Below the pieces are notes generated by a model. It was not told where the DNA came from, did not search any database, and saw only the letters and a list, made by a program, of their open reading frames with translations. From Escherichia phage nepoznato, in the sequence record NC_052658.1: a stretch of 64,000 bases of DNA. The stretch is one strand, 5' to 3'. A program made the translations under genes and the position numbers. How positions within the stretch are numbered: position 1 is the stretch's first letter; each line of letters begins with the position of its first letter. Shown piece after piece: positions 4,381 to 62,503 of the stretch.

Positions 4381-4559
4381 TTCTGGGTTATCAAATCTTT
4401 TTATTCTGGAGTAGTCGCAACTCTACTCCACGTTCTCTTATGAACTGCTGCACATCACTGTGCAGAATAGACTATATCATCATCTCCTAAGAGATGCTTT
4501 GCTTTTCGAGCAGCATTTGCTTCTGCCCTACTCCCTTTCGGGATAGTCGTTGAACTACA

Positions 4560-5240
4560 TCACCAATTGTAGTTATTAGATAAGTACGTATAGGTTTTCC
4601 TATCTTTAATACTCTTAACTACATTAAAACTTACACCGTATTTTTTAGCTATTTTATTTATTGATAGAATATTTTCTTGCAGCTTTTCACAAATCCCTAA
4701 GACTTTATCTTCACTTATTCTGTTGGAAGAGGGTATTTTTCTAAAGTTAAAGTCTTGTGAAATGTCTTTATATGTTCTGCCAGCTTTTATATCACTAACA
4801 ACAGATTGTGCCACATTATACATCTGACAGATATCTTTGTTACGTGATCCTTGCTCTAACAGTTTGCAAATTTCCACAGCAACAGTGTCTGGAATAGGTC
4901 TGTAGTCATTTATGACTTCTGTTCGTCTTAACCCTGTGGACATAGCATGAAGAGTATTCTCTTGTTCTGTTGTCCACTCAAGATTGTCTGCACAATTATT
5001 AAGTTTGTTGCCATCTTTGTGATTAACAAAAGGCTTATTTTCAGGGTTAGGCACAAATGCTTTTGCTATCAACCTGTGCTGTAATTCTTCTATCCTACTA
5101 CCATTTTCACAAATGGTTACTCCCTTGTAATCTCCAAGCATCTTATTTTCGCTTAGGAATTTTTGGGTGTATAAACTAAAAATACGACCATCGTATGTGG
5201 CGCAATAATGCGGGTATCCGATGAAACCTAAGTTTTTCAT
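4560..5240 (-). CDS. HNH homing endonuclease
   Basis: 226 aa; His-Me finger motif ...NHKDGNKLNNCADNLEWTTEQENTLHA; own promoter and RBS; inserted between the two terminase segments. Confidence 0.7.
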   Translation of the reverse strand: MKNLGFIGYPHYCATYDGRIFSLYTQKFLSENKMLGDYKGVTICENGSRIEELQHRLIAKAFVPNPENKPFVNHKDGNKLNNCADNLEWTTEQENTLHAMSTGLRRTEVINDYRPIPDTVAVEICKLLEQGSRNKDICQMYNVAQSVVSDIKAGRTYKDISQDFNFRKIPSSNRISEDKVLGICEKLQENILSINKIAKKYGVSFNVVKSIKDRKTYTYLSNNYNW

Positions 5241-5272
5241 TTTACTCTCCTACTAATATTTTTGGAGAAGTG

Positions 5273-5301
5273 ATTATAGCTGCTGATTATCTATTTGTCA
5301 A
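5273..5301 (-). promoter_or_regulatory. strong sigma70-like promoter (TTGACA, 17 bp, TATAAT) for the HNH gene
   Basis: Minus-strand reading GTCTATTGACAAATAGATAATCAGCAGCTATAAT, followed by RBS and the ATG at 5240. Confidence 0.6.
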
Positions 5302-5355
5302 TAGACTTCCCAGCAATTAACAAAGTTATTCGATGTGCATCGCTGCACAAAGCCA

Positions 5356-6597
5356 CTATTGATTAATGGTTCCACCAATGAACACAAATGTTTGTGGTTC
5401 AATAACCACTGTTTCACCTGTATTAGGGTTTTCCATGAAACAGTTTTCTGGATATTTTTCTTTCAGTTCTTCAGGTGTGTCAGCAAAAACAGGTTCATCG
5501 TTAACAATGATGAAATATTTTTGTTTACCACACATATCTTCTCTAGGATAACCGCCCTCATCGAGATAAGGTAATACCCAATTCAAAACCCAACTATCTG
5601 CATCGGGGTTACATGTGCACAACATGAAGCTTGTTTCTGATTCTGAACGCATACGTCCCAGAAGATAGAGCATTTCATATTGCGTGAAGTGGGTTAACTC
5701 GTCAAAACCTACCATTGAATACTGTGTACCCTGATGGTTTGTTTCTGCTGTTACGTTATCATTTTCCAAATGATCGAATTTGAGGGTTCCACCACCAGTG
5801 GCTTCAAAAATGATATCCATTGTACTTTCTTTTACGTGTGGTTGTAAAGGAAGATACAAACGTTTTGCTTCTGTAAACAGACCACCTGGTTTACGGTGAG
5901 CAGTGGTGTTCTTACGGAAAAGTATTCCACCAAACAAAGGATCTTTGTAGGCGTATTTTAAAGCTTTCAGCAATAGCAGACGAGACTTGCCGCTATTCCC
6001 AGTAACGAAGCAGTGATCGCCACGTCTAAAGACAATATAGCTGCTTGGAGTCTCAAAACAATATTTCTTATCATCTGTTGAAATAACCTCGTGTATTTTT
6101 AAGTAAGTGCTCTTTTTACCAGGTATGTTAAAAGGAACACGTTTACCGAATGGATTTTCTACATAACCTTGAAGTGGTTTTCCTATTTGCTGTAATGCAA
6201 TAAGATCTCCTACAAGAATCTCGAAATGTTTCTTTGATTTCTTTTTCTTATAGAATACAAAACGGTGTTCCATACTAAGTTCTTGGAACAATCCTACACC
6301 ATTTGTTATTCTGTATAGGTTATCTCCATTTAAATCGTATTCTACAAAATAAGGTGTTACCAATTCTAAACGCTTATTCTTAGGGTTGTATTGGTAAATA
6401 TCCTCTCCCGAATATTCACTAATCTGTCTCCAACCATCTTTTGTAAGATATTCCGTTTCAGCAGAAACACATCCAGCGGCACCACCATAAATCATAACTT
6501 CTGGCATTAAATCCATTGCAAGAGTCTGTTTACCTGGTTGAGCCTTTACTTCAATATCTACTCCAGCTAAACTACCTGCTGCCTTTTTCTTTGCCAC
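5356..6597 (-). CDS. terL: terminase large subunit, N-terminal ATPase segment, with putative mini-intein
   Basis: 413 aa; Walker B-like YSMVGFDELTHF; residues 43-201 start with Cys (CVSAETEYLTKDGWRQISE, Hint block A-like) and end with Asn followed by Ser; removing them joins ...YGGAAG to SGKSRLL..., giving a canonical Walker A GAAGSGKS. Confidence 0.55.
   Translation of the reverse strand: MAKKKAAGSLAGVDIEVKAQPGKQTLAMDLMPEVMIYGGAAGCVSAETEYLTKDGWRQISEYSGEDIYQYNPKNKRLELVTPYFVEYDLNGDNLYRITNGVGLFQELSMEHRFVFYKKKKSKKHFEILVGDLIALQQIGKPLQGYVENPFGKRVPFNIPGKKSTYLKIHEVISTDDKKYCFETPSSYIVFRRGDHCFVTGNSGKSRLLLLKALKYAYKDPLFGGILFRKNTTAHRKPGGLFTEAKRLYLPLQPHVKESTMDIIFEATGGGTLKFDHLENDNVTAETNHQGTQYSMVGFDELTHFTQYEMLYLLGRMRSESETSFMLCTCNPDADSWVLNWVLPYLDEGGYPREDMCGKQKYFIIVNDEPVFADTPEELKEKYPENCFMENPNTGETVVIEPQTFVFIGGTINQ
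5995..6471 (-). other. putative mini-intein (Hint domain, about 159 aa) inside terminase Walker A
   Basis: Codon 6469-6471 is TGT (Cys1); codon 5995-5997 is AAT (terminal Asn); next codon is AGC (Ser+1). Penultimate residue is Gly, not His, so splicing competence is uncertain. Confidence 0.45.
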
Positions 6598-8331: not shown

Positions 8332-8394
8332 TTTAAAAGAATATCTCACGTCTGATACAGACTAACCTTTTGTCTGACGCATGAAATATTTAAT

Positions 8395-8471
8395 TGGTCG
8401 GAATTGCAGGATTCGAACCTGCGACCCTACGCTCCCAAAGCGTATGCTCTACCAAACTGAGCTAAATTCCG
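8395..8471 (-). tRNA. tRNA-Pro (anticodon UGG), CCA encoded
   Basis: Acceptor CGGAATT/AATTCCG, D-arm GCTC-AGTTTGGTA-GAGC, anticodon stem TACGC/GCGTA with loop TTTGGGA, T-arm GCAGG-TTCGAAT-CCTGC. The 5' end overlaps the stop of CDS 8462-8980. Confidence 0.8.
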
Positions 8472-8980
8472 TTATTAATGTGCTTCCATGTGGTGTAAGT
8501 AACAATATCCTGTATTGTCCATCTTGAAACTTCATACTTTTTTGCCAATGCTCGTTGACTAATTTTAGTAGTCTCATACTCCATACGGATTTGAATAACA
8601 TCTTTTTCTGATAACTTGGCTTTATTATTTTCTTCCCCTTTAGGATTAACAAGTAATCCTGTGCTAACAGCGTGTGTCATATTCTCATGCTGTGTCGCCC
8701 ACTCCACGTTATCCTTGTGGTTGTTAAGCTTGTTACCATCTTTGTGATTAACAGATTTCTTGTTTTCAGGATTAGGATGAAAAGCTTTACAAACCAAACG
8801 GTGAATCTTAAAACAAATACTTTTTCCTTTTCTACCGCCAATTTTTGTTGCGTGGGTATAGTAACCTGTTTTAGATATGGTTTGGGATAGTATCTTATTA
8901 GTTCTCTTACTTCTTAATCTTCCGAGGTCACTTATTTGGAAGTAATTCTCATAACCAGCTACATCACGCCATTCTTCCAT
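8462..8980 (-). CDS. HNH homing endonuclease embedded in tRNA cluster
   Basis: 172 aa; motif ...VNHKDGNKLNNHKDNVEWATQHENMTHA, closely similar to the HNH protein at 4560-5240. Confidence 0.7.
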   Translation of the reverse strand: MEEWRDVAGYENYFQISDLGRLRSKRTNKILSQTISKTGYYTHATKIGGRKGKSICFKIHRLVCKAFHPNPENKKSVNHKDGNKLNNHKDNVEWATQHENMTHAVSTGLLVNPKGEENNKAKLSEKDVIQIRMEYETTKISQRALAKKYEVSRWTIQDIVTYTTWKHINNGI

Positions 8981-9106
8981 TTATACCTACTTATACCTGA
9001 ATAAAACAATAAATCATTTAATGAAGGGCAACCAGAAGAAGTGTGAGAGAAGGAGAAAACCATGAGTAAAAGAGAAAGTTTTCTGGCAACCCTTTATTAA
9101 ATAATT

Positions 9107-9758: not shown

Positions 9759-9846
9759 TGGTGGTGAGTGATGGAGTCGAACCACCCGAATCGCAATGAT
9801 AACAGATTTACAGTCTGCCCCGCTACCCCTACGGAATTAACTCACC
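9759..9846 (-). tRNA. tRNA-Tyr (anticodon GUA), type II, CCA encoded
   Basis: 88 nt; acceptor GGTGAGT/ACTCACC; anticodon arm GCAGA-CTGTAAA-TCTGT; long variable arm; T-arm GGTGG-TTCGACT-CCATC. Confidence 0.75.
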
Positions 9847-30961: not shown

Positions 30962-31288
30962 ATGGGTATTGATATCGAATGGCGTATGTTACAGGGTGCA
31001 CCTTTTAATAAGTGGGAAGAGGCTGTAGGAGAAGATCCTAGAATTGAAGAAGAATTTGATGGAGATTTTAACTGGTTCTTACAAGAAGGTCTTGACTTAA
31101 GTCGCATCTCTCCTTTCTACGATGCGGATGAGTCTTATTGCATATATGGCATTTATTTAGAAGGTGGAGAAGGAAGCGTAGCTGTAGATCTTGAACAACT
31201 AAATGCAAATGCAAAAGAAGCCTATGCAGAGCTACTTGAAAAATATAACATTAAAACGGAGACTATTATTTCTCAACATGTCTGGTAA
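30962..31288 (+). CDS. hypothetical acidic protein
   Basis: 108 aa ORF. Confidence 0.35.
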   Translation: MGIDIEWRMLQGAPFNKWEEAVGEDPRIEEEFDGDFNWFLQEGLDLSRISPFYDADESYCIYGIYLEGGEGSVAVDLEQLNANAKEAYAELLEKYNIKTETIISQHVW

Positions 31289-40828: not shown

Positions 40829-41109
40829 TAGGAGGTAAAGTGGGAATCGAAGATATCAAAGGTTATAAACCGCATACCGATGACAAAATTGGTAAAGTGA
40901 ATGCTATTAAAGATGCTGAAGTTCGATTAGGATTAATCTTTGATGCTCTAATGTCTGAATTGTGGGCTGAACTGGATGATTGTGAAGATTTGGAAGAGTC
41001 TACCAATATATCCACCCGCCTTGACCAAATTTCAATAGCAAAGACTAAGTTGAAAGAAGCTTCTATGTGGGCCTGTCGTTCCGTTTTCCAACCAGAGGAG
41101 AAATACTAA
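40801..41109 (+). CDS. hypothetical protein
   Basis: 102 aa ORF. Confidence 0.35.
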   Translation: MASIFFKLLIGGKVGIEDIKGYKPHTDDKIGKVNAIKDAEVRLGLIFDALMSELWAELDDCEDLEESTNISTRLDQISIAKTKLKEASMWACRSVFQPEEKY

Positions 41110-41609: not shown

Positions 41610-41619
41610 TAAATAATAA

Positions 41620-41640
41620 CCCGCTTCGGCGGGTTTTTTA
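41620..41640 (+). terminator. intrinsic terminator
   Basis: CCCGC-ttcg-GCGGG followed by TTTTTTA. Confidence 0.65.
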
Positions 41641-41669
41641 TTGACAGAAATCTGGAAGCTTGATAAACT
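41641..41669 (+). promoter_or_regulatory. sigma70-like promoter (TTGACA, 17 bp, TAAACT)
   Basis: ttttttaTTGACAgaaatctggaagcttgaTAAACT, upstream of CDS 41700-42635. Confidence 0.45.
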
Positions 41670-41699: not shown

Positions 41700-42635
41700 A
41701 TGGTGTTAATTGGTAGCCGTGCATTACAAATTCATGCTATGGATATGGGAAAAGACTTGTATCGCCCTTGTGTAGATTTAGATTACCTCTGTACAGAACA
41801 AGAATGGGAAGAATTATCAAAAATGTTCTCTCAAGATGAGTTTGTTGAACTTGTAGAGCGTAAAGGGAACAAGGGCCATGTCAAAATGATAGCTGGTGCA
41901 CATTTGGAATACGATATTGCTTCTCAAGGAGATAGCACAGAAGCTTTGATTAGTTATTGTGAAGACTCTGATGATATTCGTCGAACTTACGCTGGACACG
42001 TTGTTGCTCCTTTAGATGTGCTCTACCTTCTTAAAATGAGTCATCGTTTTAAAAAGGATAGTCCTCACTTCTTTAAAACTATGAAAGATATTCATTTCAT
42101 GCGGTCACTGGGCGCAAAGATCCCAGAAAATCTTAAGAGTATTTATGAGTTGCGTGAGAAAGAAACATACACTTACTCTCATCCAAACTTAAACGTGAGA
42201 AGTAAAGACTTCTTTAAAGGTGATGAGGTTCCGTATGTTTATGATCATGACTCTATTCATGAAGCAATCGCAGTAATGGATGCTCCAGCATATAAATCTT
42301 ATATGAAAGATGGAAGTGAAGTTATGACCAGCAAAGAAAAGTTTTTTGCTCAACCAAAACATGTGCGCCTGTTAGGTGTTTATGAAGAAGCGTGTGTTTT
42401 GGCTTTGGAACGTTCACAAATTCCTTTCGGTGAAGAGATCGGAGGTCCAACCCCTAAGCAAAGTTTTATGATGGCTTTATCTAAAGTTTGCACATCTATC
42501 ACTAGTGGTTGGTTTCGTGAATATGCCTATGAATCCTTCCATGTCGTGATGAAGCTTTATGAAAGTATGGGAGAAGATGATTACATCAAAAGATTCCACG
42601 CTAATAAACACTTACTTAAACCTTTTGAGGAATAG
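41700..42635 (+). CDS. hypothetical protein, possible nucleotidyltransferase fold
   Basis: 311 aa; N-terminal LIGSRALQIHAMDMGKD...CVDLDYL loosely resembles the GS...DxD nucleotidyltransferase signature but spacing is atypical. Confidence 0.3.
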   Translation: MVLIGSRALQIHAMDMGKDLYRPCVDLDYLCTEQEWEELSKMFSQDEFVELVERKGNKGHVKMIAGAHLEYDIASQGDSTEALISYCEDSDDIRRTYAGHVVAPLDVLYLLKMSHRFKKDSPHFFKTMKDIHFMRSLGAKIPENLKSIYELREKETYTYSHPNLNVRSKDFFKGDEVPYVYDHDSIHEAIAVMDAPAYKSYMKDGSEVMTSKEKFFAQPKHVRLLGVYEEACVLALERSQIPFGEEIGGPTPKQSFMMALSKVCTSITSGWFREYAYESFHVVMKLYESMGEDDYIKRFHANKHLLKPFEE

Positions 42636-42636
42636 T

Positions 42637-43308
42637 ATGGGGAGGAAATTAGAAAACCTGTCTGGAATGGTATTCAATGGTATAACAGTTCTTGATGTAG
42701 CAATTAAGGAGACTGGATGATCTACAAAATGGAATTGTATTTGTCATTGCGGTGAGAAGTTTGTTACTACAGCCGAAAGATTAAAATCTGGTAAAACTAA
42801 ATCTTGTGGTTGTGAGCGTTACCATTACAAGTTCATTGAGGATAGATATACATATAATTCCTACAATGCCATGATAGACAGGTGCACCAATGAGAACTCA
42901 CCGAATTATCCTAAGTATGGAGGTAGTGGAGTTTCTGTATGCTGTAGATGGTTAGAGAAGGGGGACTTAGGTTTTTTGAATTTCGTTGAGGATATGGGTA
43001 GTAGACCACAAAACACAACCTTAAACAGAATTAATTCTGCTGATGTTTATAGCAAAGAAACCTGTGAGTGGGCTTCACTCGCAATGCAATCTTATGATCA
43101 AAAACTAAGGAAAGATAATCTATCCGGTATTTGTGGGGTAAAATACAGAAAAGATAGGGGCAAATGGATTGCATACATCCGAGTCAATGGAGAGCATATT
43201 AGTTTATACTATGGTAACAGTAAAGAAGAAGCTATTCGTAAACGGAAGGAGGCAGAGATGTTATATTATGATAGGGCTAAGGTGAAACCTTACGAAGGAG
43301 GTTATTGA
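42637..43308 (+). pseudogene. AP2/HNH-family endonuclease-like gene interrupted by an in-frame TGA
   Basis: ATG at 42637 gives MGRKLENLSGMVFNGITVLDVAIKETG, then TGA at 42718-42720, then the same frame continues STKWNCICHCGEKF...KSGKTKSCGC...YGGSGVSVCCRWL... to the stop at 43308. Confidence 0.4.
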
Positions 43309-43309
43309 T

Positions 43310-43708
43310 ATGGGTTGGTGTGATCAGTCACAAAGTTACTTCAAAGTAACACATGCGGATCTCAACAAAGCAAGAGTGAAGTTGTTGAGTATCGAAAAAG
43401 AAACAGTGGCTATTGACAAACGTCTCCGAGAGAGTAAAGTGGTAATCACTTCTTGGTTTGGACTGAAACGTAAAGTCATGACGCAACGAGAGCATGTAGT
43501 TAAAAATATGCACGGTTGGGCTTGGTTCCACGATATGGCAGAACATTTGGGATACATTTCTCCTGAAGAACATGATCTCTTGGAGTTACGCTACCGCCTT
43601 CCAGATGTAGAAGATTTAGATTTGTGGATCAGTTCAGAACAGATCTTCCTAACAGAAAGTGATTGGCGTAAAGTTATGGCTTGTCTTGAATGGAGGGGTA
43701 ATGAGTAA
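43310..43708 (+). CDS. hypothetical protein
   Basis: 132 aa ORF. Confidence 0.4.
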   Translation: MGWCDQSQSYFKVTHADLNKARVKLLSIEKETVAIDKRLRESKVVITSWFGLKRKVMTQREHVVKNMHGWAWFHDMAEHLGYISPEEHDLLELRYRLPDVEDLDLWISSEQIFLTESDWRKVMACLEWRGNE

Positions 43709-44384
43709 AACAGTTTTGTCTATGTTTGACGGATCTGGGATCATGGTGTTACGTTATGCCGAAGCAGGTCACAAGTGTTTTTGTGTAAACGCTGATGAAG
43801 GGGACCACGGTAAATACGAGGTTAGGATGGAGCACCCAAACATAACCTATGTGAATGCTTGGATAGATTCTACATTCAACCCTGAAGATCATGGAATACC
43901 TAAACCCGATATTATTTTTGGATTTCCACCTTGCACTATGTTAGCAGGTAGTGGTAGCAAACACGAACGCAGCACAGAGGAATTAGATGAAGCTTTAGCT
44001 AATATTCGTGTAGTGGAAGATTTGGGTAACAAATACAATGTTCCTTGGATGATTGAGAACCCAGTAGGTAAACTTTCAACCTTATGGCGTAAACCAGATT
44101 TTTACTTTGATCCTTATGAGTATGGTGGGTATTTGTTTGAAGAGGAAGGAAGCTTTCATCCTAAAATGCCTACCCGTGATGGGTATACAAAGAAAACTTG
44201 TATTTGGCACGGCAATGGTTTTGTTCAACCAGTGAAGAAACCAGTAGATCATATAGGCTGCTTCTGGGGTTGGAAAAGCTTAGGTGGAGCTAGTGCAAAA
44301 ACAAAACAACTTAGATCACTAACCGCACGTGGTTTTGCTCGTGCAGTGTTTTTGTCTAACAATCTTCTAGATAAGGAGAAATAA
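43701..44384 (+). CDS. DNA cytosine-C5 methyltransferase-like protein
   Basis: Track ORF 43659-44384 trimmed to the ATG at 43701 after RBS GGAGGGG; motif I SMFDGSG, motif IV GFPPCT, ENP (ENV-like). Confidence 0.45.
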   Translation: MSKTVLSMFDGSGIMVLRYAEAGHKCFCVNADEGDHGKYEVRMEHPNITYVNAWIDSTFNPEDHGIPKPDIIFGFPPCTMLAGSGSKHERSTEELDEALANIRVVEDLGNKYNVPWMIENPVGKLSTLWRKPDFYFDPYEYGGYLFEEEGSFHPKMPTRDGYTKKTCIWHGNGFVQPVKKPVDHIGCFWGWKSLGGASAKTKQLRSLTARGFARAVFLSNNLLDKEK

Positions 44385-45092: not shown

Positions 45093-45572
45093 ATGTTTCA
45101 AGTAAATATCAATGTGCATAATAGTTACTCTGATTGTGAAACGTGTGGCTATAATTCATCTAATGTTGTTCGTATTAGTGGCGATTTAGGAGAAGCTTCT
45201 TTTGGAGAAGAAGCAAGTTGCTTTAGTGGTATGGATGCAGAATGGAATGATATTGCACATTGGTTGGTGAGCAAACTAAAAGAAAAAGAGAAACCCTTTC
45301 CTACTCTGCTTGATCGTTCCTTTGTAGAAGATGCAGGTAAAGCATATGCGGATTATGCTTATGCAGACGGGAAATATTTGGAAGATGATAAGGCTAACCA
45401 TTTGCTTTATGTTTATTATGAAGCTGAATCTGCCTACGATAATTATTATAGCATGTCTAACATCCTCCGTCTATTTGCAGAGTTTGATATTTATTTTGAA
45501 GTAGAATTTTCAGAAGATGATACTTACGAATATGATTCTTATGATCCATTTGAGGAGGACGAGGGTGAATGA
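45093..45572 (+). CDS. hypothetical highly acidic protein
   Basis: 159 aa rich in Asp/Glu/Tyr; C-terminus ...EDDTYEYDSYDPFEEDEGE. Confidence 0.4.
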   Translation: MFQVNINVHNSYSDCETCGYNSSNVVRISGDLGEASFGEEASCFSGMDAEWNDIAHWLVSKLKEKEKPFPTLLDRSFVEDAGKAYADYAYADGKYLEDDKANHLLYVYYEAESAYDNYYSMSNILRLFAEFDIYFEVEFSEDDTYEYDSYDPFEEDEGE

Positions 45573-46309
45573 TAGAACGAAAACCCTTACCAGATAGAGA
45601 TTACTTGTTATCAAGGTTTAGTGTGGAGAATGGTCGTCTTGTTTGGAAACCTAAACCTTCTACAACAAAAGAGAACAAAAGGTGGAATAGCAGATACGCA
45701 GGGAAGATTGCAGGGACTATTGATAAAGTTGGTTACTCTCATGTCAAAATAGATGGTATTGTATACTTGGAGCACAGAGTTTGTTTTAAAATGTACCATA
45801 ATTACTGTCCAGATGTTATAGATCATGATGATGGCAATAAGCTTAATAATGCGGAAAGTAATTTATTGGATAGTAACTATTTATTAAATAATAACAATAG
45901 ACATGTGGATGGGTTAGAAGGTATTTATGAAAAGGATGGTGTTTTTCTTTGGGTTATAAACTACAACCAAGAAACTTTCTCTGTTTCAGGTTTCAAAACT
46001 AAAGAGGAAGCTACTGTAGCTAGAGCTTTAGCAAAACAAGAAATTTTGAAAGGATCTTATATCAAAAAAGAAAAGAAGCGTATAGATAACACTTCAGGAT
46101 TAAGTTGTGTGTTTGTGGCAACAAGAGAGAGAACATTCTTTTTCAAGTTTGTGTTTGACAAGACCACGTATTGCAAATATGGTTTCAACGATCCAGAGAG
46201 ATGTGCTATAGCTCTGGAGAAGCTAAGGTTGAAGGTGATGAAAGAAAAATATAAACCTGCAAATAAAAGCATTTGCGAAAAACATAAGGAGGAGATTTAT
46301 GCCGCGTAG
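45569..46309 (+). CDS. HNH endonuclease
   Basis: 246 aa; ...DVIDHDDGNKLNNAESNLL HNH core. Confidence 0.6.
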   Translation: MIERKPLPDRDYLLSRFSVENGRLVWKPKPSTTKENKRWNSRYAGKIAGTIDKVGYSHVKIDGIVYLEHRVCFKMYHNYCPDVIDHDDGNKLNNAESNLLDSNYLLNNNNRHVDGLEGIYEKDGVFLWVINYNQETFSVSGFKTKEEATVARALAKQEILKGSYIKKEKKRIDNTSGLSCVFVATRERTFFFKFVFDKTTYCKYGFNDPERCAIALEKLRLKVMKEKYKPANKSICEKHKEEIYAA

Positions 46310-47114
46310 AGTCATATTCATAACTGGCGCAGGACTATCTGTGGATAGCGGTATCCCAGCTTTTAGAACAGATACTTCTTCAGGGGAGGCGTTATGGTCT
46401 TCTTATAATCTTTCTGAAGTCTGTGACATTTTCAACTTCCGTGACGGTTATCAGCAAGAACAAGGTATTCTTGATGCTATGGGCGGTTTAGATGCGGAAG
46501 GATATAACCTCTACCGTAAAACTCACGACTTTTACAATAAACGTCGCGCGGAATTAGAGAAAGTTGACCCGAATCCGGCACATCTTCAGATTGGGGAATG
46601 GTTCAAAAAACATGGTGCAGAAAAGATTATTAACATCACTACTAACGTTGATGACCTCCTTGAACGAGCAGGAGTAGATAGGGAAGAAGTGCTACATGTG
46701 CATGGTTTTCTTCCTGAAATTACTTTTCAAAGAAAAGCTGGACAACCTACAATTGTAAAAGATGTTGGTTATCAAGCCATAGATGTAGATGACTACCATT
46801 ATGTAAAACCTAATGTAATCTTCTTTGGGGAAGCTGCTCCACTTTACACAGATATGTATCATATTTTTGATACACTGACGGCTCAAGATATGGTTATCGT
46901 TGTAGGCTGCTCTAACCAAGTAATCAACTTCAACTGGGAACTCTTCCCTGCCCTGAATATTGGGGTTAAGATGGTTGTAGTTAACCCAGGTTTGAATTTT
47001 GTAGAACAAACTCTCTACGAAGAACGTGGAGTGCTTGTCTACCGAGAGAAAGCAGGAACAGTCTTCAGTGATGAAGGCTTTATCAAAATGGTCGAAGACC
47101 ACTTAAACAAATAA
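46299..47114 (+). CDS. Sir2-family protein (NAD-dependent deacylase / ADP-ribosyltransferase-like)
   Basis: 271 aa; ITGAGLSVDSGIPAFR, TTNVDDLLERAG, LHVHG, NVIFFGEAAP; no CxxC zinc module. Confidence 0.65.
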   Translation: MPRRVIFITGAGLSVDSGIPAFRTDTSSGEALWSSYNLSEVCDIFNFRDGYQQEQGILDAMGGLDAEGYNLYRKTHDFYNKRRAELEKVDPNPAHLQIGEWFKKHGAEKIINITTNVDDLLERAGVDREEVLHVHGFLPEITFQRKAGQPTIVKDVGYQAIDVDDYHYVKPNVIFFGEAAPLYTDMYHIFDTLTAQDMVIVVGCSNQVINFNWELFPALNIGVKMVVVNPGLNFVEQTLYEERGVLVYREKAGTVFSDEGFIKMVEDHLNK

Positions 47115-55232: not shown

Positions 55233-55580
55233 TTAGTTGTGTAAACCCAAATGTGCTACAACTTCTCTACGATAAGATAACTGCATAGCGATTTTATAGC
55301 CAGGATGAAAACCATTTACATCAATGTCATCAAACCAAACCTCAAATGAACCGTGTTTAAGAGTCATTAAGTTAATATACCATTCAATAGTATAATGATC
55401 GTTAGCAATACCTTCGATGTAAAATTCTCGACAACAGTGAGATAAATCTTCACTTGTTTCACGTTTCCAGTCTTTGATAGCACCCTTCTCTTTGGCTTTA
55501 TTCAGAATGTGGATCAGGTCTTCAACTTGCATATTCTCTCCTTTAGTTCCAACTAATAATAATGTGTTTGATAATCCCAA
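55233..55580 (-). CDS. hypothetical protein
   Basis: 115 aa ORF. Confidence 0.35.
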   Translation of the reverse strand: MGLSNTLLLVGTKGENMQVEDLIHILNKAKEKGAIKDWKRETSEDLSHCCREFYIEGIANDHYTIEWYINLMTLKHGSFEVWFDDIDVNGFHPGYKIAMQLSYRREVVAHLGLHN

Positions 55581-56097
55581 AAATACTGTGCTCTGCGGTT
55601 GCCAATGTTACATCCAAACCTTTTGCACGTAGCATTGTAGCTACAACATTTGCCCCTCTTTTCTGTTCACTTATCTGTTCATAAGAAGAAGGGTTATTGC
55701 ACAAACCAAAACTGGAAGGTTCAAAGTATTTTTCAAACTTCCCTTGTTCCGCACAATCTTCAATCTCTAATAGAACGGCGTCTACCATTTCAGTAAAATG
55801 GGAATTTGCTTGCAGTGCTTTATTACGCAGTTTATCACGTAAACTTCCCGTAGATTCTTCCTGCTCTTCTGTCTGTCCATCTTCACAGAAAGGATGAAGT
55901 TCAGCCCAGTCCCAAGCATCTCCTTCTAAAGCAAATAGAGTGTTGTAATTGAAGAAAGTGCAGCGCGGATATTCCCCGTTGAAAGAATCTTTCAGCAGAA
56001 TATATTTCTTACCGTTTGCATGGAAGAGTTCTCCTTTGATAACCTTACCTACAAGGATATCACTGTTAGTGGAACGGGTGCAAATAAACTTTTTCAT
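55543..56097 (-). CDS. hypothetical protein
   Basis: 184 aa ORF after RBS AGGAGAAAA; downstream of promoter 56127-56155. Confidence 0.4.
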   Translation of the reverse strand: MKKFICTRSTNSDILVGKVIKGELFHANGKKYILLKDSFNGEYPRCTFFNYNTLFALEGDAWDWAELHPFCEDGQTEEQEESTGSLRDKLRNKALQANSHFTEMVDAVLLEIEDCAEQGKFEKYFEPSSFGLCNNPSSYEQISEQKRGANVVATMLRAKGLDVTLATAEHSIFGIIKHIIISWN

Positions 56098-56159: not shown

Positions 56160-56381
56160 TTATTTCCATTCCCCTTGGTGTTCTTTGATCTCATAAGAGT
56201 AGTATTCGAACATGCTCATACAAACCACACCAGACATTTCTAAACAAAGAGGTTTACTATTATAAAAGGCACTTATCATTCTTCCAGCTTTATCTGCTGA
56301 CTCTTTAGTATCACATCCACAAACTGTTCTCACCCAAGGATCAGGGCCATCATATTTAAGACGCACAATCCACATGATCAT
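56160..56381 (-). CDS. hypothetical protein
   Basis: 73 aa ORF. Confidence 0.35.
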   Translation of the reverse strand: MIMWIVRLKYDGPDPWVRTVCGCDTKESADKAGRMISAFYNSKPLCLEMSGVVCMSMFEYYSYEIKEHQGEWK

Positions 56382-56605
56382 TCTTCCATCTCAAACCATT
56401 CAGGGAACACTTTGCGGAAGACCCGCGTGTTTTCTAAGAGAAATTCCAACTCTTTTTCCAAATCTGCGTTCCAACCGTTTATTTTAACACGGATTGCCAA
56501 TGCACTTGCACGGCGACTCAATTCTTGACAGATTGGATCACGCAGAACTATTGAGTCATAAAACTGACAAACAGCCTCAAGTTCATACCAGTTATAATCC
56601 GACAT
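56378..56605 (-). CDS. hypothetical protein
   Basis: 75 aa ORF. Confidence 0.35.
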   Translation of the reverse strand: MSDYNWYELEAVCQFYDSIVLRDPICQELSRRASALAIRVKINGWNADLEKELEFLLENTRVFRKVFPEWFEMEE

Positions 56606-56931
56606 TATTCATCCTCCTCTGCAATACGATCTCTTACCCAATTAATCCTGTCCACGTTCAGGTGACATACCTCTGCATCTGATTCTAAGACATATGCATC
56701 GTAGTTCTCATTGAAAGGGAGTGCTTGACTCAACCCTTTGTGGTAAAACTGTGCGTGCATTTCATCTGACAAGGTTGTTATAAGGGGATTGTAATTACCT
56801 CTGTGCACATAATCGAACAAGTTGGCACACAAACCACAATCCCGCCGAAAAGGTTTACCATCAGGAGCACCAACATCAATCCATGCTAGATAAATTTTAT
56901 AAAACTCCATCAACCTTGTGCTTGTTTTCAT
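56605..56931 (-). CDS. paralog family member C
   Basis: 108 aa; EFYKIYLAWI...GLCANL...LPFNENYD...RINWVRDRI. Confidence 0.45.
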   Translation of the reverse strand: MKTSTRLMEFYKIYLAWIDVGAPDGKPFRRDCGLCANLFDYVHRGNYNPLITTLSDEMHAQFYHKGLSQALPFNENYDAYVLESDAEVCHLNVDRINWVRDRIAEEDE

Positions 56932-57169
56932 TTAGCCACCTCGTTAGTTTTTCTTGCTCTTTGTTTGCGCGTTCTAAGCTTCTGAACTTTAAACAGAGGG
57001 AACGAGAATCCCTACCCATGCACAAGCTTTCATCTAAGCTGTGCTCCCCAACCAACCAAAGAGAGTATGTTTGAACATCTAACCCATAGTTTCTGTCTTT
57101 CCATAATCTCACCCCAAGAACATCAAAAGGAGCTTCCGCGACTAAAGAAAGAAACCGATCTTTATTCAT
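56897..57169 (-). CDS. hypothetical protein
   Basis: 90 aa ORF. Confidence 0.35.
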   Translation of the reverse strand: MNKDRFLSLVAEAPFDVLGVRLWKDRNYGLDVQTYSLWLVGEHSLDESLCMGRDSRSLCLKFRSLERANKEQEKLTRWLNENKHKVDGVL

Positions 57170-57231
57170 ATTACACCACCTTGCTCACGTTGATAATGTA
57201 TGTATACCATACATAAAATAAATGTCAAGGC

Positions 57232-57432
57232 TTATCGACACAGATAGTTGTAACGATCTGCTTTATCCTCGGCTTCAGCAAAGTCAGCAATCAAGGAAGT
57301 TTTGAGTTCTTCCAACTCTTTCACCCAAGAGTCGTAATCGTTCTGTGTTTCTCCAATAGTTTGGAGAAAACAATCGTCGTAGCCAATAGACATGGCTAAC
57401 TCGATAATACGTTCCAGTTTTTCTTCCATCAC
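57232..57432 (-). CDS. hypothetical protein
   Basis: 66 aa ORF. Confidence 0.35.
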   Translation of the reverse strand: MMEEKLERIIELAMSIGYDDCFLQTIGETQNDYDSWVKELEELKTSLIADFAEAEDKADRYNYLCR

Positions 57433-57798
57433 TTCTCTCCTTCTACAGACTTCTGTTTAACATAAAAGTAAGCACCACGAGCAAGATACAAATCATGTTC
57501 AATATCGCTCACAGGAAAACCATCTGGATTTTTAAAACCGTCTTCTACAGCCAAAATGAGAGATCGTAAACTGATAGCTAACAACTCCATTTGATCTTGT
57601 AGTTTTCTATTTTCTGCATAAAGGTTTTTGCATTTTTGTTCTGCATTTTTCCATTGTTCTAATGCATGATCATAGTTTCGCATAAGGATAGCTTTTTCTT
57701 GTTCACGTTTAAAAGTTTCTTCACAAATGAAACCCGTGCCTAAACCAGTTTCTTCATCTTTGACAAACACTTCAACAAAATCTTTAGACATATTATCT
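57429..57798 (-). CDS. hypothetical protein
   Basis: Track ORF 57429-57923 trimmed to the ATG at 57798 after RBS AGGAGAT (MSKDFVEVF...); avoids overlap with the upstream gene. Confidence 0.35.
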
Positions 57799-58056
57799 CC
57801 TATTTGCTTTTGGATACTCCCAACCCTCTGGGAGATCTTCTTTACACATCCACTCAAAAGGCCAGCGACAATAACTGTGCCACTTTCCATCGAGATACAA
57901 GCAATCTTCATCCACTGGTCCACAAGGGTTGATAACTACAACACACCCTTTTGCTCGCCAATATTGAACTATTTCAGGGTAAAAACAAGAAACGTCGGTC
58001 CACTCCCAAATACGTTCATCATTCAAACGGTATGCTGCTGGCAATGTCTCTTTCAT
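57793..58056 (-). CDS. hypothetical Cys/Trp-rich protein
   Basis: 87 aa ORF. Confidence 0.35.
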   Translation of the reverse strand: MKETLPAAYRLNDERIWEWTDVSCFYPEIVQYWRAKGCVVVINPCGPVDEDCLYLDGKWHSYCRWPFEWMCKEDLPEGWEYPKANRR

Positions 58057-58060
58057 ATTA

Positions 58061-58507
58061 TTAAACCTCTGTCAAAGAGAAACGCCAATCCTTACTACTA
58101 CCTACACCAAGGAAGATATAGTCTCCGGTACTAACGGAATATCTCCAAGCGGGAATCCAATCAGGAATCTCTGGCTTATGGCTGTAGCCATAACGCTCGC
58201 CACTCGAATCTGTTGCAATATAATTAACAAATTCAGGAACCTCTAAAGTTTCACCTTGATACTCTACACGCTTGAAGCCATCTTCCACTTCTTTCTCACC
58301 TTCTACCAGAAGGGCAAGAAGTTTGATGTGAGGGCAAGTGAAATCTTGTCCTGGATAACGTGAACGGATATCTGTTAACAATGCGACTACAGCATCCGAT
58401 AACTCTTTATAATCCTCATATCTTACAAATGTACCTTCTGTCGGATCATCAGGACACAAACGCCAAACATCGTTGCAGTTTACAGCATAATGTCTCATTT
58501 TAGTCAT
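58061..58507 (-). CDS. hypothetical protein
   Basis: 148 aa ORF. Confidence 0.4.
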   Translation of the reverse strand: MTKMRHYAVNCNDVWRLCPDDPTEGTFVRYEDYKELSDAVVALLTDIRSRYPGQDFTCPHIKLLALLVEGEKEVEDGFKRVEYQGETLEVPEFVNYIATDSSGERYGYSHKPEIPDWIPAWRYSVSTGDYIFLGVGSSKDWRFSLTEV

Positions 58508-58579
58508 AAATACCTCTATTCATATATTAAGAAACCCAAAATAATAACCAGAACAATGAAAATGATAGTCTCTATCATA

Positions 58580-58828
58580 TTACCAAGCTGCCACTACCCC
58601 AGTGCGTAGGGTTTCTTCATACCCCCAAATATCTGCACTAAGAGCAACAGCAGTCCATTCTGGGGACCAAGTAAAACCCAACAGATCTGTCATCTTTTCA
58701 GCATCTTTTTTAATGCTTTCTTCATCAGAGAAAACACGGTAAAGATCTTCCAACTCTTTTGTAATCTCTGCACGTTCTTCTTCGGTAATCGGTGTTCCTA
58801 CACGATCAGTAGTAAAAACATTCAGCAT
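58580..58828 (-). CDS. hypothetical protein
   Basis: 82 aa ORF. Confidence 0.35.
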   Translation of the reverse strand: MLNVFTTDRVGTPITEEERAEITKELEDLYRVFSDEESIKKDAEKMTDLLGFTWSPEWTAVALSADIWGYEETLRTGVVAAW

Positions 58829-58837
58829 AATATCCCC

Positions 58838-59236
58838 TTATCGTTGCGTACAATCAGCTTCTAGAGTAAGAACATTCGTTATTGTTTTATCATTTTTTAG
58901 AAATGCAAACCAAGCCAAAGTGTCTCGATACTCTGTGCGCATCATCACAACTTCGGTAGTGCCAATAAACTGCTGTGAACCGTACATAGAACTTCCATCT
59001 TTACTCTTTCCTCCTGTGTTTTGAAGAATACCGCTCATCAAAGCACCACCCGAATTTTTAAGGATAAAAGAGTTATCTTTATTAATGACAACAGAAGCCA
59101 TTTTCTTAGGACCAGAAATCACTTCACCTTTCAGATTTTTAACAACTACATCTGATACACACTCATAAACTTGAGACGCATTTGCTGTTCCAAGAGATGC
59201 AATGAGTAACAATAAACCTACGATAATCTTTTTCAT
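58838..59236 (-). CDS. secreted/periplasmic protein with signal peptide
   Basis: 132 aa; MKKIIVGLLLLIASLGTANA then SQVYE (signal peptidase I-type site, no lipobox). Confidence 0.4.
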   Translation of the reverse strand: MKKIIVGLLLLIASLGTANASQVYECVSDVVVKNLKGEVISGPKKMASVVINKDNSFILKNSGGALMSGILQNTGGKSKDGSSMYGSQQFIGTTEVVMMRTEYRDTLAWFAFLKNDKTITNVLTLEADCTQR

Positions 59237-59331
59237 ATAAACTCTCCTCTTTGTTTACCCGATGCGCCCCTGTTGGGCGGAAAGGGTTGTACGCAAAATT
59301 TTTAGCTCCAATCGTCGGGTGTCCCGACTCC

Positions 59332-59538
59332 TTACGCTTTTAATGTTTTAACAGAATGACAAGCTTTGCAAACCATAACCGGAACAAGTTCGTCTCCACT
59401 ATCCGCATAAATCACTGTTTTCTTCATTCTGCCACCACATGAACAATACTCTGTATGATCCGCTGGAATATTAAATATTCCGTAATCACTTTCATACTGT
59501 TTCTTACATATGGACACTGCTTTTGTAAAACAAGACAT
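59332..59538 (-). CDS. hypothetical zinc-ribbon protein
   Basis: 68 aa with CSCGG...CKACH. Confidence 0.35.
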   Translation of the reverse strand: MSCFTKAVSICKKQYESDYGIFNIPADHTEYCSCGGRMKKTVIYADSGDELVPVMVCKACHSVKTLKA

Positions 59539-59540
59539 AC

Positions 59541-59762
59541 CTACTCCGAAAGAACATTCACTTCGTCAGAGAAAAATACGTAATCACAACCTTCCCAAAC
59601 ATCTTCTTCAAACCACTCCCATCCCTCAACTTTGGACATTTCTTCTATCGTAACAAAGAATGTTGTCATATCATCACTAACAAGATGTGCTTCAACAACA
59701 AAAGGAATCTGAACATTCTCAAAACCAACATAACCCAATACATCACAAACTCTAATTTTCAT
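59541..59762 (-). CDS. hypothetical protein
   Basis: 73 aa ORF. Confidence 0.35.
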   Translation of the reverse strand: MKIRVCDVLGYVGFENVQIPFVVEAHLVSDDMTTFFVTIEEMSKVEGWEWFEEDVWEGCDYVFFSDEVNVLSE

Positions 59763-59763
59763 A

Positions 59764-59964
59764 TTATGCTCCTTTGTAGATTATGTTGGTGCGTTCACAC
59801 TCTGCCACCAGCAAGCGATTAGCAATGTTGTCCATAGGAACATCAATCTCTACGCTCCAGGCATTGATATACACTTCTTCAATCTTTGCTCCAAGCATTT
59901 GTGCGATCAGAGCAACAGCCCCAGCATATTCAAGTTTAATCTCAATTACCATTTTGCACCTCAA
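59764..59964 (-). CDS. hypothetical protein
   Basis: 66 aa ORF. Confidence 0.35.
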   Translation of the reverse strand: MRCKMVIEIKLEYAGAVALIAQMLGAKIEEVYINAWSVEIDVPMDNIANRLLVAECERTNIIYKGA

Positions 59965-59966
59965 GG

Positions 59967-60203
59967 TTATTTATCTTGCTTATATCTTACAAGGCGATCA
60001 CACTCCAGGTCAAGAAATTTCTCCGCATTTCGTTCATGTTTGAGCACAATACATTGTTCTTTCAAGTCTGTAGCTCTTTGCTGCGCGGCTCCTGGGTCAA
60101 AATCCCAAAGCCATGCGGCGAAAAGAACAACCATAACAATTGCCAAGAAAACAAACACTATAGGCATTGCACATCCTCCTGTGTAGCATGATCTTTTACC
60201 CAT
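59967..60203 (-). CDS. hypothetical membrane protein
   Basis: 78 aa; one transmembrane segment (IVFVFLAIVMVVLFAAWLW). Confidence 0.35.
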   Translation of the reverse strand: MGKRSCYTGGCAMPIVFVFLAIVMVVLFAAWLWDFDPGAAQQRATDLKEQCIVLKHERNAEKFLDLECDRLVRYKQDK

Positions 60204-60472
60204 TTTATACGGGCAGCATTCAAATGCAATAGCCCGTTTCTTTGTGCAAAATCATATTTAAACCAGTCTCCGTCATCAAACGGGTATTCTTCAGACAACC
60301 CTGCTTCTCGAAATTGCATTTGCATTTCATAATTTAGGTCATCATAACCACCAGACCAAAGATAGAGGCAACTACATAATCCTTTATCATGCCAGAAAGG
60401 ATTATTATCTGGAGCACCAGCTAATAGCCAGTTATGATATGCCTGATAAAATTCTTTAAGTTCCTCTGACAT
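60158..60472 (-). CDS. paralog family member D
   Basis: 104 aa; EFYQAYHNWL...GLCSCL...YPFDD...RIKWVKDH. Confidence 0.45.
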   Translation of the reverse strand: MSEELKEFYQAYHNWLLAGAPDNNPFWHDKGLCSCLYLWSGGYDDLNYEMQMQFREAGLSEEYPFDDGDWFKYDFAQRNGLLHLNAARIKWVKDHATQEDVQCL

Positions 60473-60649
60473 TTAACCTCCTGTATGCAGTGTTGAAAGA
60501 TACGCAGCAAAAGCATTCTCGGCTGTTTTCACCTCCTCTTCAAGATCTTCACGCTCTGCTGGCGTTAATGCATTCCGCACAGCAGCGTCTGCTTCTCGGA
60601 TTTTTCTTACTAAACGTGAAACATCTTTCAATTGTTGAAAAGTAGCCAT
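60473..60649 (-). CDS. hypothetical small helical protein
   Basis: 58 aa (below track cutoff), MATFQQLKDVSRLVRKIREADAAV...; RBS GGAGAAAG. Confidence 0.3.
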   Translation of the reverse strand: MATFQQLKDVSRLVRKIREADAAVRNALTPAEREDLEEEVKTAENAFAAYLSTLHTGG

Positions 60650-60664
60650 AATCTTTCTCCTGTT

Positions 60665-60949
60665 TTAGTTAGTGTCACGCCATTCGGCAATCTCTTCGGC
60701 TAAACGATCACAAGAATCGAAAGCCACTTTACCTTTAGTCTGATTTTCATGTCGTACTTCCTTCAATGCGAGTAATGCGTTCACCAGATTATCAACACCT
60801 TGATCATCCAGTGCGATAACATCGAAGTTAAACCCTGTATCAGTTGGGACTTTACGTTTTATGGTGTAATAGTCTCCTTCATGACGTTCAACATACGCGT
60901 ATGGGTAACTGCTGTTTGGATCATGTTTCACGCGAATAGATGTTTTCAT
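60665..60949 (-). CDS. hypothetical protein
   Basis: 94 aa ORF. Confidence 0.35.
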   Translation of the reverse strand: MKTSIRVKHDPNSSYPYAYVERHEGDYYTIKRKVPTDTGFNFDVIALDDQGVDNLVNALLALKEVRHENQTKGKVAFDSCDRLAEEIAEWRDTN

Positions 60950-60964
60950 GTTTTGTTCTCCTCT

Positions 60965-61216
60965 TTAATCAAACCAGTTGTATTCGGAAGGGTAACGAGC
61001 GTAGTTTGGCTTGTACCCCAGTCTTTTCATCTTAACAGACATACGAGTGAAGCCAAAAGTTGTTTTGCCCTTAGACATAAACTTCTTCCCACTCTTCATT
61101 GGCTTCTTAGGGTTTTTGATCGTCTGGTGTAACGCTCGCGCAAGCCACAAAGTGTATGCGCTAGGCACTTGATTAACTTTCATCTTGTTACCTTTCATCA
61201 TTTCACCTCGGACCAA
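60965..61216 (-). CDS. hypothetical basic protein
   Basis: 83 aa Lys-rich ORF. Confidence 0.35.
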   Translation of the reverse strand: MVRGEMMKGNKMKVNQVPSAYTLWLARALHQTIKNPKKPMKSGKKFMSKGKTTFGFTRMSVKMKRLGYKPNYARYPSEYNWFD

Positions 61217-61497
61217 TCAATAGTGATCCACTCATATGCTCCGTTTAGGTCCATTTCTTTATAAACAACAAGCCCACGCTCACGAAGAATTGCTACTGCT
61301 TCATCCATCCATTTCACCTGATTGTAGATTTCCCCTGGGTGGGTAGGGGAATTATCCAGACCAAAATCGGATGGCGTGAAATTCCTTGAAGAGTTTCCCG
61401 CTCGTGCTTCAGCAAAACAAGTCTCGATCACTTCTTCAACAGGGAAGTTGAAGGAAGCTTCTTTTGCAATACGGCGTAACTGTTCAGTCAGATTCAT
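61198..61497 (-). CDS. hypothetical protein
   Basis: 99 aa ORF. Confidence 0.35.
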   Translation of the reverse strand: MNLTEQLRRIAKEASFNFPVEEVIETCFAEARAGNSSRNFTPSDFGLDNSPTHPGEIYNQVKWMDEAVAILRERGLVVYKEMDLNGAYEWITIDWSEVK

Positions 61498-61524
61498 CTT
61501 ATTCTCCTTTCGTTGTGTGAAACA

Positions 61525-61962
61525 TTATAACAGATCTAATGCTTTCAACTCTTCTTTCAATGATTCAAGCAGGTCACATTCAACGTCAATCAGAGATAAC
61601 AAGTGACCAACAATGCCTTCCAGATGTTGATACTCACTATAACTTATAAATTCAGAATTGTAAACAGAAACATCCTTAGTTTCTTTCACAACTTCCCCCG
61701 CAGACACGCAAATAAAAAAGTTACGCTCTCCGCGAGCTAACAATATCTCCCAACTTCTGAACGGATACTGTCCAGCCTCAATAATATCCCCGCTGTCCAA
61801 TAAAGTCAATGAGCAAACAGACCCTGATTCACTAACATCTTCGACGCGGAAACAAGACCCGTCAATCAAAGCCGCCATTTTGAAATTTTCATCAGAGATC
61901 ATAGAGAAAGCTTCACATGCAGCTTTACTTTTGAAACAGTAAACAGCATTAACTTTAAACAT
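61525..61962 (-). CDS. hypothetical protein
   Basis: 145 aa ORF. Confidence 0.4.
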   Translation of the reverse strand: MFKVNAVYCFKSKAACEAFSMISDENFKMAALIDGSCFRVEDVSESGSVCSLTLLDSGDIIEAGQYPFRSWEILLARGERNFFICVSAGEVVKETKDVSVYNSEFISYSEYQHLEGIVGHLLSLIDVECDLLESLKEELKALDLL

Positions 61963-62050
61963 AACATTCCCCTTTTAAACAAAAGACACACCGATGGTAG
62001 CAACAACCAGACGCTTATAAACTTCAACCTCTTCTGTAGGATTAGCCATT

Positions 62051-62503
62051 TTATGCTCTGCCTAGTTCATCATACCATTTCAAAGCGTCTTTTGGAAGCA
62101 TACCAAAATCTTCTTTTAGTTCTTTTTCAATCTCTTCTTTCAGTTCATTCAACACTTGCAGTTGGCGTATTTTCTTCCGTAACAAAGCTTCCCGTTCACT
62201 GTTGCTTGGTGTTACTTCATTTCCTGCTATCATCACATATCCTGTCGGAGAGCAAGGAAGATAGTCATCAATATCTTCTAAAGCATAACGATAATTGGAG
62301 TCCAGGAAGTTTACATGCACACGATCACATCCAAACAAGGTAGCACGGAATACTTCGTAACGAGTTTCAGATAGGATATGTTGCACACAGACAATACCTA
62401 CATCATTTTGCACTGCACAGGTTACATCCAACAAACTTGAATGTTCTTTGACATAATCTGCAACACATTGCACATGTGCTTCCAGTATAGATAGTTGTTT
62501 CAT
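62051..62503 (-). CDS. hypothetical protein
   Basis: 150 aa ORF. Confidence 0.4.
   Translation of the reverse strand: MKQLSILEAHVQCVADYVKEHSSLLDVTCAVQNDVGIVCVQHILSETRYEVFRATLFGCDRVHVNFLDSNYRYALEDIDDYLPCSPTGYVMIAGNEVTPSNSEREALLRKKIRQLQVLNELKEEIEKELKEDFGMLPKDALKWYDELGRA

Follow-up and report, generated by a model that had tools for sequence, protein, structure and literature searches.

We identify a homing endonuclease gene interrupted by a single in-frame stop codon in Escherichia phage nepoznato, at positions 42637-43308 (+) of the 64,000-nucleotide stretch of record NC_052658.1 analyzed here (hereafter the window, whose coordinates are used throughout). We consider it very probable that the interruption is a real nonsense mutation with loss of function, and that the locus is a young pseudogene of a free-standing homing endonuclease gene of the AP2-linked, divergent-HNH ('IPA-HNH') class. 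An earlier note on this DNA had preferred the reading of a recently inactivated homing-endonuclease pseudogene, and our analysis supports it: orthologues carry CGA at the codon that reads TGA here, and no other position of the gene is damaged. As far as sequence analysis shows, the in-frame TGA is no recoding signal, and the locus would be an instance of ordinary biology, a very young pseudogene. We propose that its annotation should read disrupted homing endonuclease gene, and not 110-aa 'HNH endonuclease'.

An intact reading frame with one internal stop

The frame comprises 223 codons (672 nt), from ATG 42637 to TGA 43306-43308. Translation of the window confirmed that the ATG is equipped with a ribosome-binding site, as the earlier note had described, and that the sole interruption of the frame is the TGA at 42718-42720 (+), codon 28. 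The Shine-Dalgarno sequence GAGGA (42626-42630, +) lies within the last codons of the upstream DUF7275 gene, ~7 nt from the ATG, and its duplex with the anti-Shine-Dalgarno sequence has an energy of -6.2 kcal/mol. Codons 1-27 (42637-42717, +) are the only portion still translatable from the authentic start. Beyond the premature stop, 195 sense codons (29-223) follow with no further stop before 43306-43308, and this gene body with its terminal TGA (42721-43308, +), now untranslated, carries no other lesion. In a mechanical list of open reading frames, the gene is represented only by a 145-aa remnant that begins at ATG 42871.

By comparison with its relatives, the frame on both sides of the TGA is not a chance one, because the 27 codons before the stop match orthologues and the whole frame matches PHROG 374 (label 'HNH endonuclease', E 3e-62). 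Codons 1-27 show 100% identity to the N-terminal residues of orthologues that are intact at 223 aa (P0029, P0021, and others) and ~50% identity to homologues of T4-like phages. The strings WNCICHCGEKF, KSGKTKSCGC, and YGGSGVSVCCRWL, singled out earlier as conserved, are present in the translation and are located in columns conserved across homologues. Short repeats within the gene look like chance matches.

The stop codon is derived

Megablast placed the window in Phapecoctavirus, the phAPEC8-like myoviruses of E. coli. The nearest genome, DIJ07P2 (OZ035771.1), is 96-99% identical per block, and its ~2% mismatches overall and several indels relative to the window mark it as a different isolate. 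Between 42273 and 43804 the two genomes differ by two bases in total, and within the 672-nt gene they differ at 42718 alone, where DIJ07P2 has C (CGA, Arg) and the window has T (TGA).

Further orthologues were obtained through a search of 5.8 billion proteins followed by a 90% cluster, which holds 11 distinct near-identical proteins on ~30 contigs from independent assemblies. This protein cluster supplied the informative gene copies; exact scans of viral_contigs, metagenome_contigs, and genome_contigs with a 41-nt pattern of the site, carrying N at 42718, gave no match. Arg28 is present in every cluster member that includes the N-terminus (10/10), and codon 28 is CGA in all six DNA copies fetched (L001 and L010-L014). 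Homologues from T4-like phages, with 61-64% identity, also lack a stop in the codon-28 column, which shows V in VR7 and 212, S in EcoM_005, and K in Aeromonas CC2. A sense codon (CGA, Arg) thus occupies codon 28 in DIJ07P2 and in all near-identical orthologues. Orthologues with an authentic stop and a restart at this place, the scenario that the earlier note had set against a pseudogene, were looked for and none was found.

By this comparison the TGA at codon 28 is a derived point mutation of an ancestral CGA (Arg), reached by a C-to-T transition at 42718. As in other pseudogenes, intact orthologues exist and the lesion is the derived state; the stop, moreover, precedes every conserved module. 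Two intact copies, L010 and L001, differ by five synonymous and three non-synonymous changes, a pattern that, in small numbers, fits purifying selection on the intact gene.

Because the lesion is a single base and all other public copies have C, we also considered that the phage truly carries CGA and an intact, active gene, and that the stop is a sequencing or assembly error. The exact 145-aa remnant is absent from the protein collection searched, and therefore no other assembly shows the same remnant, as an error in this one genome would also predict. Against this, the nepoznato genome (MN850571), from a phage isolated on E. coli MG1655, was sequenced by Illumina NextSeq at x120 depth (PMC7552041), where consensus substitution errors are rare. 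Position 42718 lies outside any homopolymer or repeat, and the deposited annotation already shows the interruption in its 110-aa product. A mutation and a consensus error cannot be separated by the sequence itself, and on these grounds we regard an error as possible yet unlikely.

Protein architecture and class

[quoted passage not shown] S56, C57, G58, C59), encoded at 42730-42813 (+) and delimited by alignment and model. C36, C38, G39, and C57 are conserved in at least 90% of sequences, and the model places strands at 16-23, 31-35, and 41-45; the module is predicted to be a small beta-sheet unit, probably a zinc ribbon, and it occurs twice in some homologues. The central divergent HNH-like domain (residues 70-154; 42844-43098, +) consists of helices followed by a strand-strand-helix unit (beta 128-131, beta 143-146, alpha 148-154) in an AlphaFold2 model built with 19 homologues as input (mean pLDDT 83). 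Within it, M79, R82, W105, F116, and R131 are invariant, and Y138, C143, W145, and Q151 are nearly invariant. The C-terminal AP2 DNA-binding domain spans residues 164-211 (43126-43269, +).

The AP2 domain matches its Pfam model below threshold (18 bits vs a cut-off of 33.3), and the Pfam HNH models (HNH, HNH_3, and related) match none of the 19 members; this combination of a sub-threshold AP2 and no HNH model is the same across all 19 homologues. NCBIfam gave no match for the endonuclease protein, and a search of PDB sequences returned a spurious repeat-protein match only. At the position of the general-base histidine of HNH enzymes stands Arg131, invariant in the 19 homologues within the motif [ND]-R-[IV]; ICP1 gp59 has lysine at the catalytic-histidine position. 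Profile comparison (hhalign) of the endonuclease family with ICP1 gp59 gave a probability of 96.6% and an E value of 5.8e-10 over 144 columns. The relationship is seen only by profile comparison, plain BLASTP against ICP1 gp59 being not significant.

These results qualify the label 'HNH/AP2-family' that the gene had been given. Its AP2 part stands, while 'HNH' is too loose a term for a protein that has no Pfam HNH match and an invariant arginine in place of the catalytic histidine, and both properties therefore point to the divergent AP2-associated 'IPA-HNH' class. IPA-HNH homing endonuclease genes were defined by Barth et al. as combining a divergent HNH domain missed by Pfam HNH_3 with AP2 (PMC10448857). 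Here, AP2 is C-terminal, the HNH-like domain upstream of it is missed by HNH_3 and is homologous to ICP1 gp59, and the gene is free-standing, sporadic, and located at a recombination boundary between related phages. Neither hallmark of a canonical HNH enzyme, a catalytic histidine closing the first strand or a match to a curated HNH profile, is present; PHROG 374 is the one HNH-labelled profile that matches, and its label is an annotation. By its domain content and setting, the gene is classified as a free-standing AP2-linked, divergent-HNH ('IPA-HNH') homing endonuclease gene.

Relation to known homing endonucleases

Like the published IPA-HNH genes (PMC10448857), the gene has its HNH-like domain before AP2, too divergent for HNH_3, and is free-standing, on the border of a region exchanged between related phages; that class, too, includes inactivated copies. 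Unlike the ICP1 genes, it encodes an extra Cys-rich N-terminal module and targets the 3' end of the DUF7275 gene, and its carriers are phages of the Stephanstirmvirinae and Straboviridae as opposed to ICP1. The inactivated IPA-HNH copy ICP1 gp115-gp116 is disrupted by a frameshift (PMC10448857, 2023), whereas the present gene is disrupted by a nonsense codon.

The gene also resembles the free-standing Seg and Mob endonucleases of T4 (review PMC2988022), in that its place is between conserved genes or at the end of one, is sporadic among close relatives, and is accompanied by co-converted flanking markers, and in that decayed copies exist. One such system is the defunct I-TevIII, which is mobilized by mobE (PMC2790892). 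Seg enzymes are of the GIY-YIG type, and Mob enzymes are canonical HNH proteins that keep the catalytic histidine; the present protein is neither. For Seg and Mob, cleavage and marker exclusion have been shown experimentally, whereas the present protein is known from sequence alone, and because its canonical catalytic histidine is an arginine, the name 'endonuclease' is itself putative.

A further comparison is with the HNH-AP2 homing endonucleases known from cyanobacteria, ciliates, and phages (Magnani et al. 2004; cited in PMC5714182 and PMC10448857), which keep the catalytic histidine and fall into the HNH_3 / I-HmuI group. The present protein departs from that group (group 2, PMC5714182) in having no Pfam HNH match and an invariant arginine instead of histidine. 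His-Me fingers of the PacI type lack the catalytic histidine and have a tyrosine in the inter-strand loop instead (PMC5714182). Tyr138 is nearly invariant in the inter-strand loop of the present family, which makes a PacI-like tyrosine mechanism possible by analogy; toward PacI and the His-less beta-beta-alpha-Me nucleases (group 20, PMC5714182), the protein has a weak structural score and no sequence similarity.

Insertion site in the DUF7275 gene

The target or host gene, a DUF7277/DUF7275 gene homologous to phAPEC8 gp192, lies at 41700-42635 (+; Pfam DUF7275, E 1.2e-74). The endonuclease gene of the window sits in the last codons of this gene. In phAPEC8-like and T4-like phages alike, the 3' end of the DUF7275 gene is where the element is found; a DUF7275 homologue (45% identity) stands directly upstream of it in VR7, 212, EcoM_005, and CC2. 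By these comparisons the DUF7275 gene is a recurrent landing site of this endonuclease lineage, with the same AP2-linked element at the same 3' end in two unrelated myovirus groups. The DUF7275 protein has long invariant stretches common to phAPEC8-like and T4-like myoviruses, for example GVYEE.CVLALER and KVCTSITSGWFR.

The distribution of the element is sporadic. In phAPEC8 and ~67/69 deposited relatives the endonuclease gene is absent and the flanking genes are contiguous, leaving two carriers among ~69 Phapecoctavirus records with the window counted. Among T4-like records there are five carriers out of 194, and VR20, RZ, and P8 lack exactly ~653 nt.

The last 27 nt of the gene (43282-43308, +; VKPYEGGY*), now the endonuclease C-terminus, are identical to the 3' end of phiWec188 gp192. 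They are the native 3' end of a phiWec188-type DUF7275 gene, and therefore the element is fused to the tail of its target gene; homologues of T4-like phages end 7-8 residues earlier than the window protein. The captured 27 nt include GGAGG, the ribosome-binding site of the downstream gene, a phAPEC8 gp193 homologue (43310-43708, +; PHROG 16551) whose start is coupled to the endonuclease stop codon.

A metagenomic variant of this junction carries a further HNH_3 gene of 178 aa between the gp193 homologue and the next gene (L010 4065-4601, and also L011-L013). This gene occurs in metagenomic carriers of the intact endonuclease gene and is absent from the window, and its position beside the gp193 homologue makes this short region a hot spot for endonuclease insertions.

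A foreign tract surrounds the element

The endonuclease gene lies within a foreign-haplotype tract of ~1.14 kb (42517-43656, +), a candidate co-conversion tract delimited by sliding identity, in which the haplotype switches sharply at ~42516 and ~43657. The tract takes in the endonuclease-linked DUF7275 tail and the endonuclease gene, and it extends over most of the downstream gene, which is present as the phiWec188-type allele. Outside it, phAPEC8, REC, and nieznany share 93-100% identity with the window, and the carrier contigs L010 and L013 only 58-85%; inside it, identity is 83-100% to carrier contigs and 46-80% to carrier-less relatives of the backbone. The 120-nt DUF7275 tail (42517-42636) matches carrier genomes only and resembles T4-like carriers at several residues (AYE, DDYIKRF, HL[LI]KPF). 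The left breakpoint falls just past the codons of the invariant VCTSITSGWFR motif, and this position suggests recombination or cleavage near those codons.

Free-standing T4 endonucleases provoke double-strand-break repair with co-conversion of flanking markers (PMC2988022, PMC2790892), and by analogy the tract pattern is the one expected of such repair. DIJ07P2 has the same breakpoints as the window, and therefore the invasion is older than the nonsense mutation. No promoter-like site was found directly upstream of the endonuclease gene; the gene is apparently co-transcribed, with a promoter-like site at 41641-41669 as origin and a terminator at 41618-41635 ahead of that site.

We propose that a homing endonuclease gene entered a phAPEC8-like coliphage by insertion at the 3' end of its conserved DUF7275 gene. 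The intact protein would bind DNA by its AP2 and Cys-rich modules and cleave, close to where the DUF7275 gene ends, alleles that lack the element. Repair from a carrier genome during co-infection would then copy the gene together with ~120 nt upstream and ~350 nt downstream. Later, a single nonsense substitution from CGA (Arg28) to TGA would have knocked the gene out. As translation ends after 27 residues, no endonuclease would be made and homing would no longer be possible; since the strong ribosome-binding site that serves the downstream gene is preserved, the loss should cost the phage little. The nonsense allele may represent the first step of the cycle of invasion, fixation, decay, and loss that is typical of such elements, and the locus would then be a clear case from nature of a selfish phage gene passing through its life cycle. 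DIJ07P2 (Arg28) and nepoznato (stop) form a natural isogenic pair that would permit a direct test of whether the histidine-less 'IPA-HNH' class drives homing.

Products still possible from the TGA allele

The authentic start now yields a 27-residue peptide only. The first canonical in-frame start past the stop, ATG codon 79, has no Shine-Dalgarno sequence. A residual 110-codon open reading frame (42976-43308, +) begins at TTG codon 114, preceded by the Shine-Dalgarno-like AGGGGGA with a duplex energy of -10.8 kcal/mol. In nepoznato, GenBank annotates this 110-aa remnant only at the gene, from TTG 42976; the annotated product, nepoznato_78 'HNH endonuclease' (YP_009985932.1, P0020, 110 aa), is identical to codons 114-223 of the window. 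Whatever restart is used, the product is without the Cys-rich module and misses some or all of the central domain.

That the allele is functional through a leaky stop or a truncated product seems to us quite improbable. According to the first version, ~1% read-through of UGA by tRNA-Trp would supply enough endonuclease. In its favor, E. coli K-12, the isolation host, carries a weak RF2 allele, by which UGA read-through is raised; against it, the TGAT tetranucleotide at the internal stop is the context of most genuine stops in this phage. According to the second version, the 110-aa fragment from TTG-114, with half of the nuclease-like domain and AP2, would act as a repressor or immunity factor. 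The AGGGGGA sequence upstream of TTG 42976 and the intact AP2 domain are in keeping with this, as is the precedent of CapR, in which the DNA-binding domain of such an endonuclease was domesticated (PMC10448857). The missing Shine-Dalgarno sequence at ATG codon 79 speaks against a truncated product, and residual function of either kind is set against the fact that the TGA allele is unique among ~30 copies and is therefore not a conserved arrangement.

There is a slim chance that the TGA allele lives on, with the TTG-114 fragment binding its former target near the end of the DUF7275 gene, or with read-through at a low dose. If so, the fragment would serve as a repressor or immunity factor against related endonucleases and would mark an early stage in the domestication of the DNA-binding domain of a homing endonuclease. 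In the other case, K-12 hosts, in which UGA terminates weakly, would make the full-length enzyme at a low dose that is tolerated.

UGA is an ordinary stop codon in this phage

TGA terminates 22 of the 94 crude genes in the window, the endonuclease gene's own end included, and reading through these stops yields short extensions only. The TGAT context of the internal stop is also found in 16 of the 22 TGA-ended genes. ARAGORN detected nine tRNAs in the window, and Rfam added a tenth that ARAGORN had missed (9762-9846, -; Rfam 39 bits). This tRNA has a long variable arm, and its anticodon loop CUGUAAA identifies it as tRNA-Tyr (GUA). DIJ07P2 has the same tRNA-Tyr (L009 43133-43217), and its whole 144.8-kb genome contains 11 tRNAs, all in the same cluster; published counts are 10 for nepoznato vs 11 in the other four Phapecoctavirus phages of the study (PMC7552041).

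None of the 10 tRNAs in the window and none of the 11 in the whole sister genome has a UCA anticodon by ARAGORN and Rfam, and the remark in the earlier note that no foldable tRNA had this anticodon was therefore correct, as none of the window's tRNAs reads UGA. No orthologue has UGA, Cys, or Trp at codon 28, close ones having Arg and distant ones V, K, or S. The fold of the 63 nt that follow the TGA is no more stable than that of shuffled sequence (z 0.23), and this result together with Arg in orthologues rules out a SECIS element. Reassignment as in codes 4/25 is ruled out by stop-codon usage. Frameshifting and translational bypass are likewise ruled out, because intact orthologues align collinearly in this same frame and have a sense codon at the site.

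Programmed recoding of UGA (by selenocysteine, a suppressor tRNA of the phage, or a code with TGA=Trp/Gly), an alternative that had been raised earlier, has the in-frame TGA itself and nothing else in its favor, and with CGA in the orthologues, TGA used as a normal stop, and neither a UCA tRNA nor a SECIS-like fold, it is refuted as far as sequence analysis allows, its probability being negligible in our judgment.

Other mobile genes and differences in the window

The gene two downstream of the endonuclease gene (43659-44384, +) is annotated as DNA (cytosine) methyltransferase / Dcm in relatives and has no Pfam hit at E 0.001 or better. Deamination from C to T at a site methylated by this Dcm-like neighbor was considered as an origin of the transition and dropped, because the site is not CCWGG and the neighboring gene has no Pfam hit.

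Several segments of the window have no megablast match in the otherwise 96-99% identical DIJ07P2. The largest spans ~6.1 kb (56167-62317), and smaller gaps lie at 31078-31288, 40941-41052, 45257-45437, and 55548-55882. A further segment without a match (4400-5371) surrounds a free-standing HNH_3 gene with a CENP-B-type helix-turn-helix (4560-5240, -), and another (8337-9002) lies around a homing-endonuclease gene with NUMOD4 and HNH_3 domains (8462-8980, -), located between tRNA-Pro and tRNA-Gly. Where the window has this NUMOD4 + HNH_3 gene, DIJ07P2 has tRNA-Gln (UUG; L009 43975-44050), and from this comparison a tRNA gene seems to have given way to the endonuclease gene.

An HNH-type endonuclease-like gene is also present at 45569-46309 (+), with a match to PHROG 99 (2.5e-33) and a Pfam HNH_3 score of 22 bits, just below the cut-off; a SIR2-family gene (46299-47114) lies directly downstream of it.
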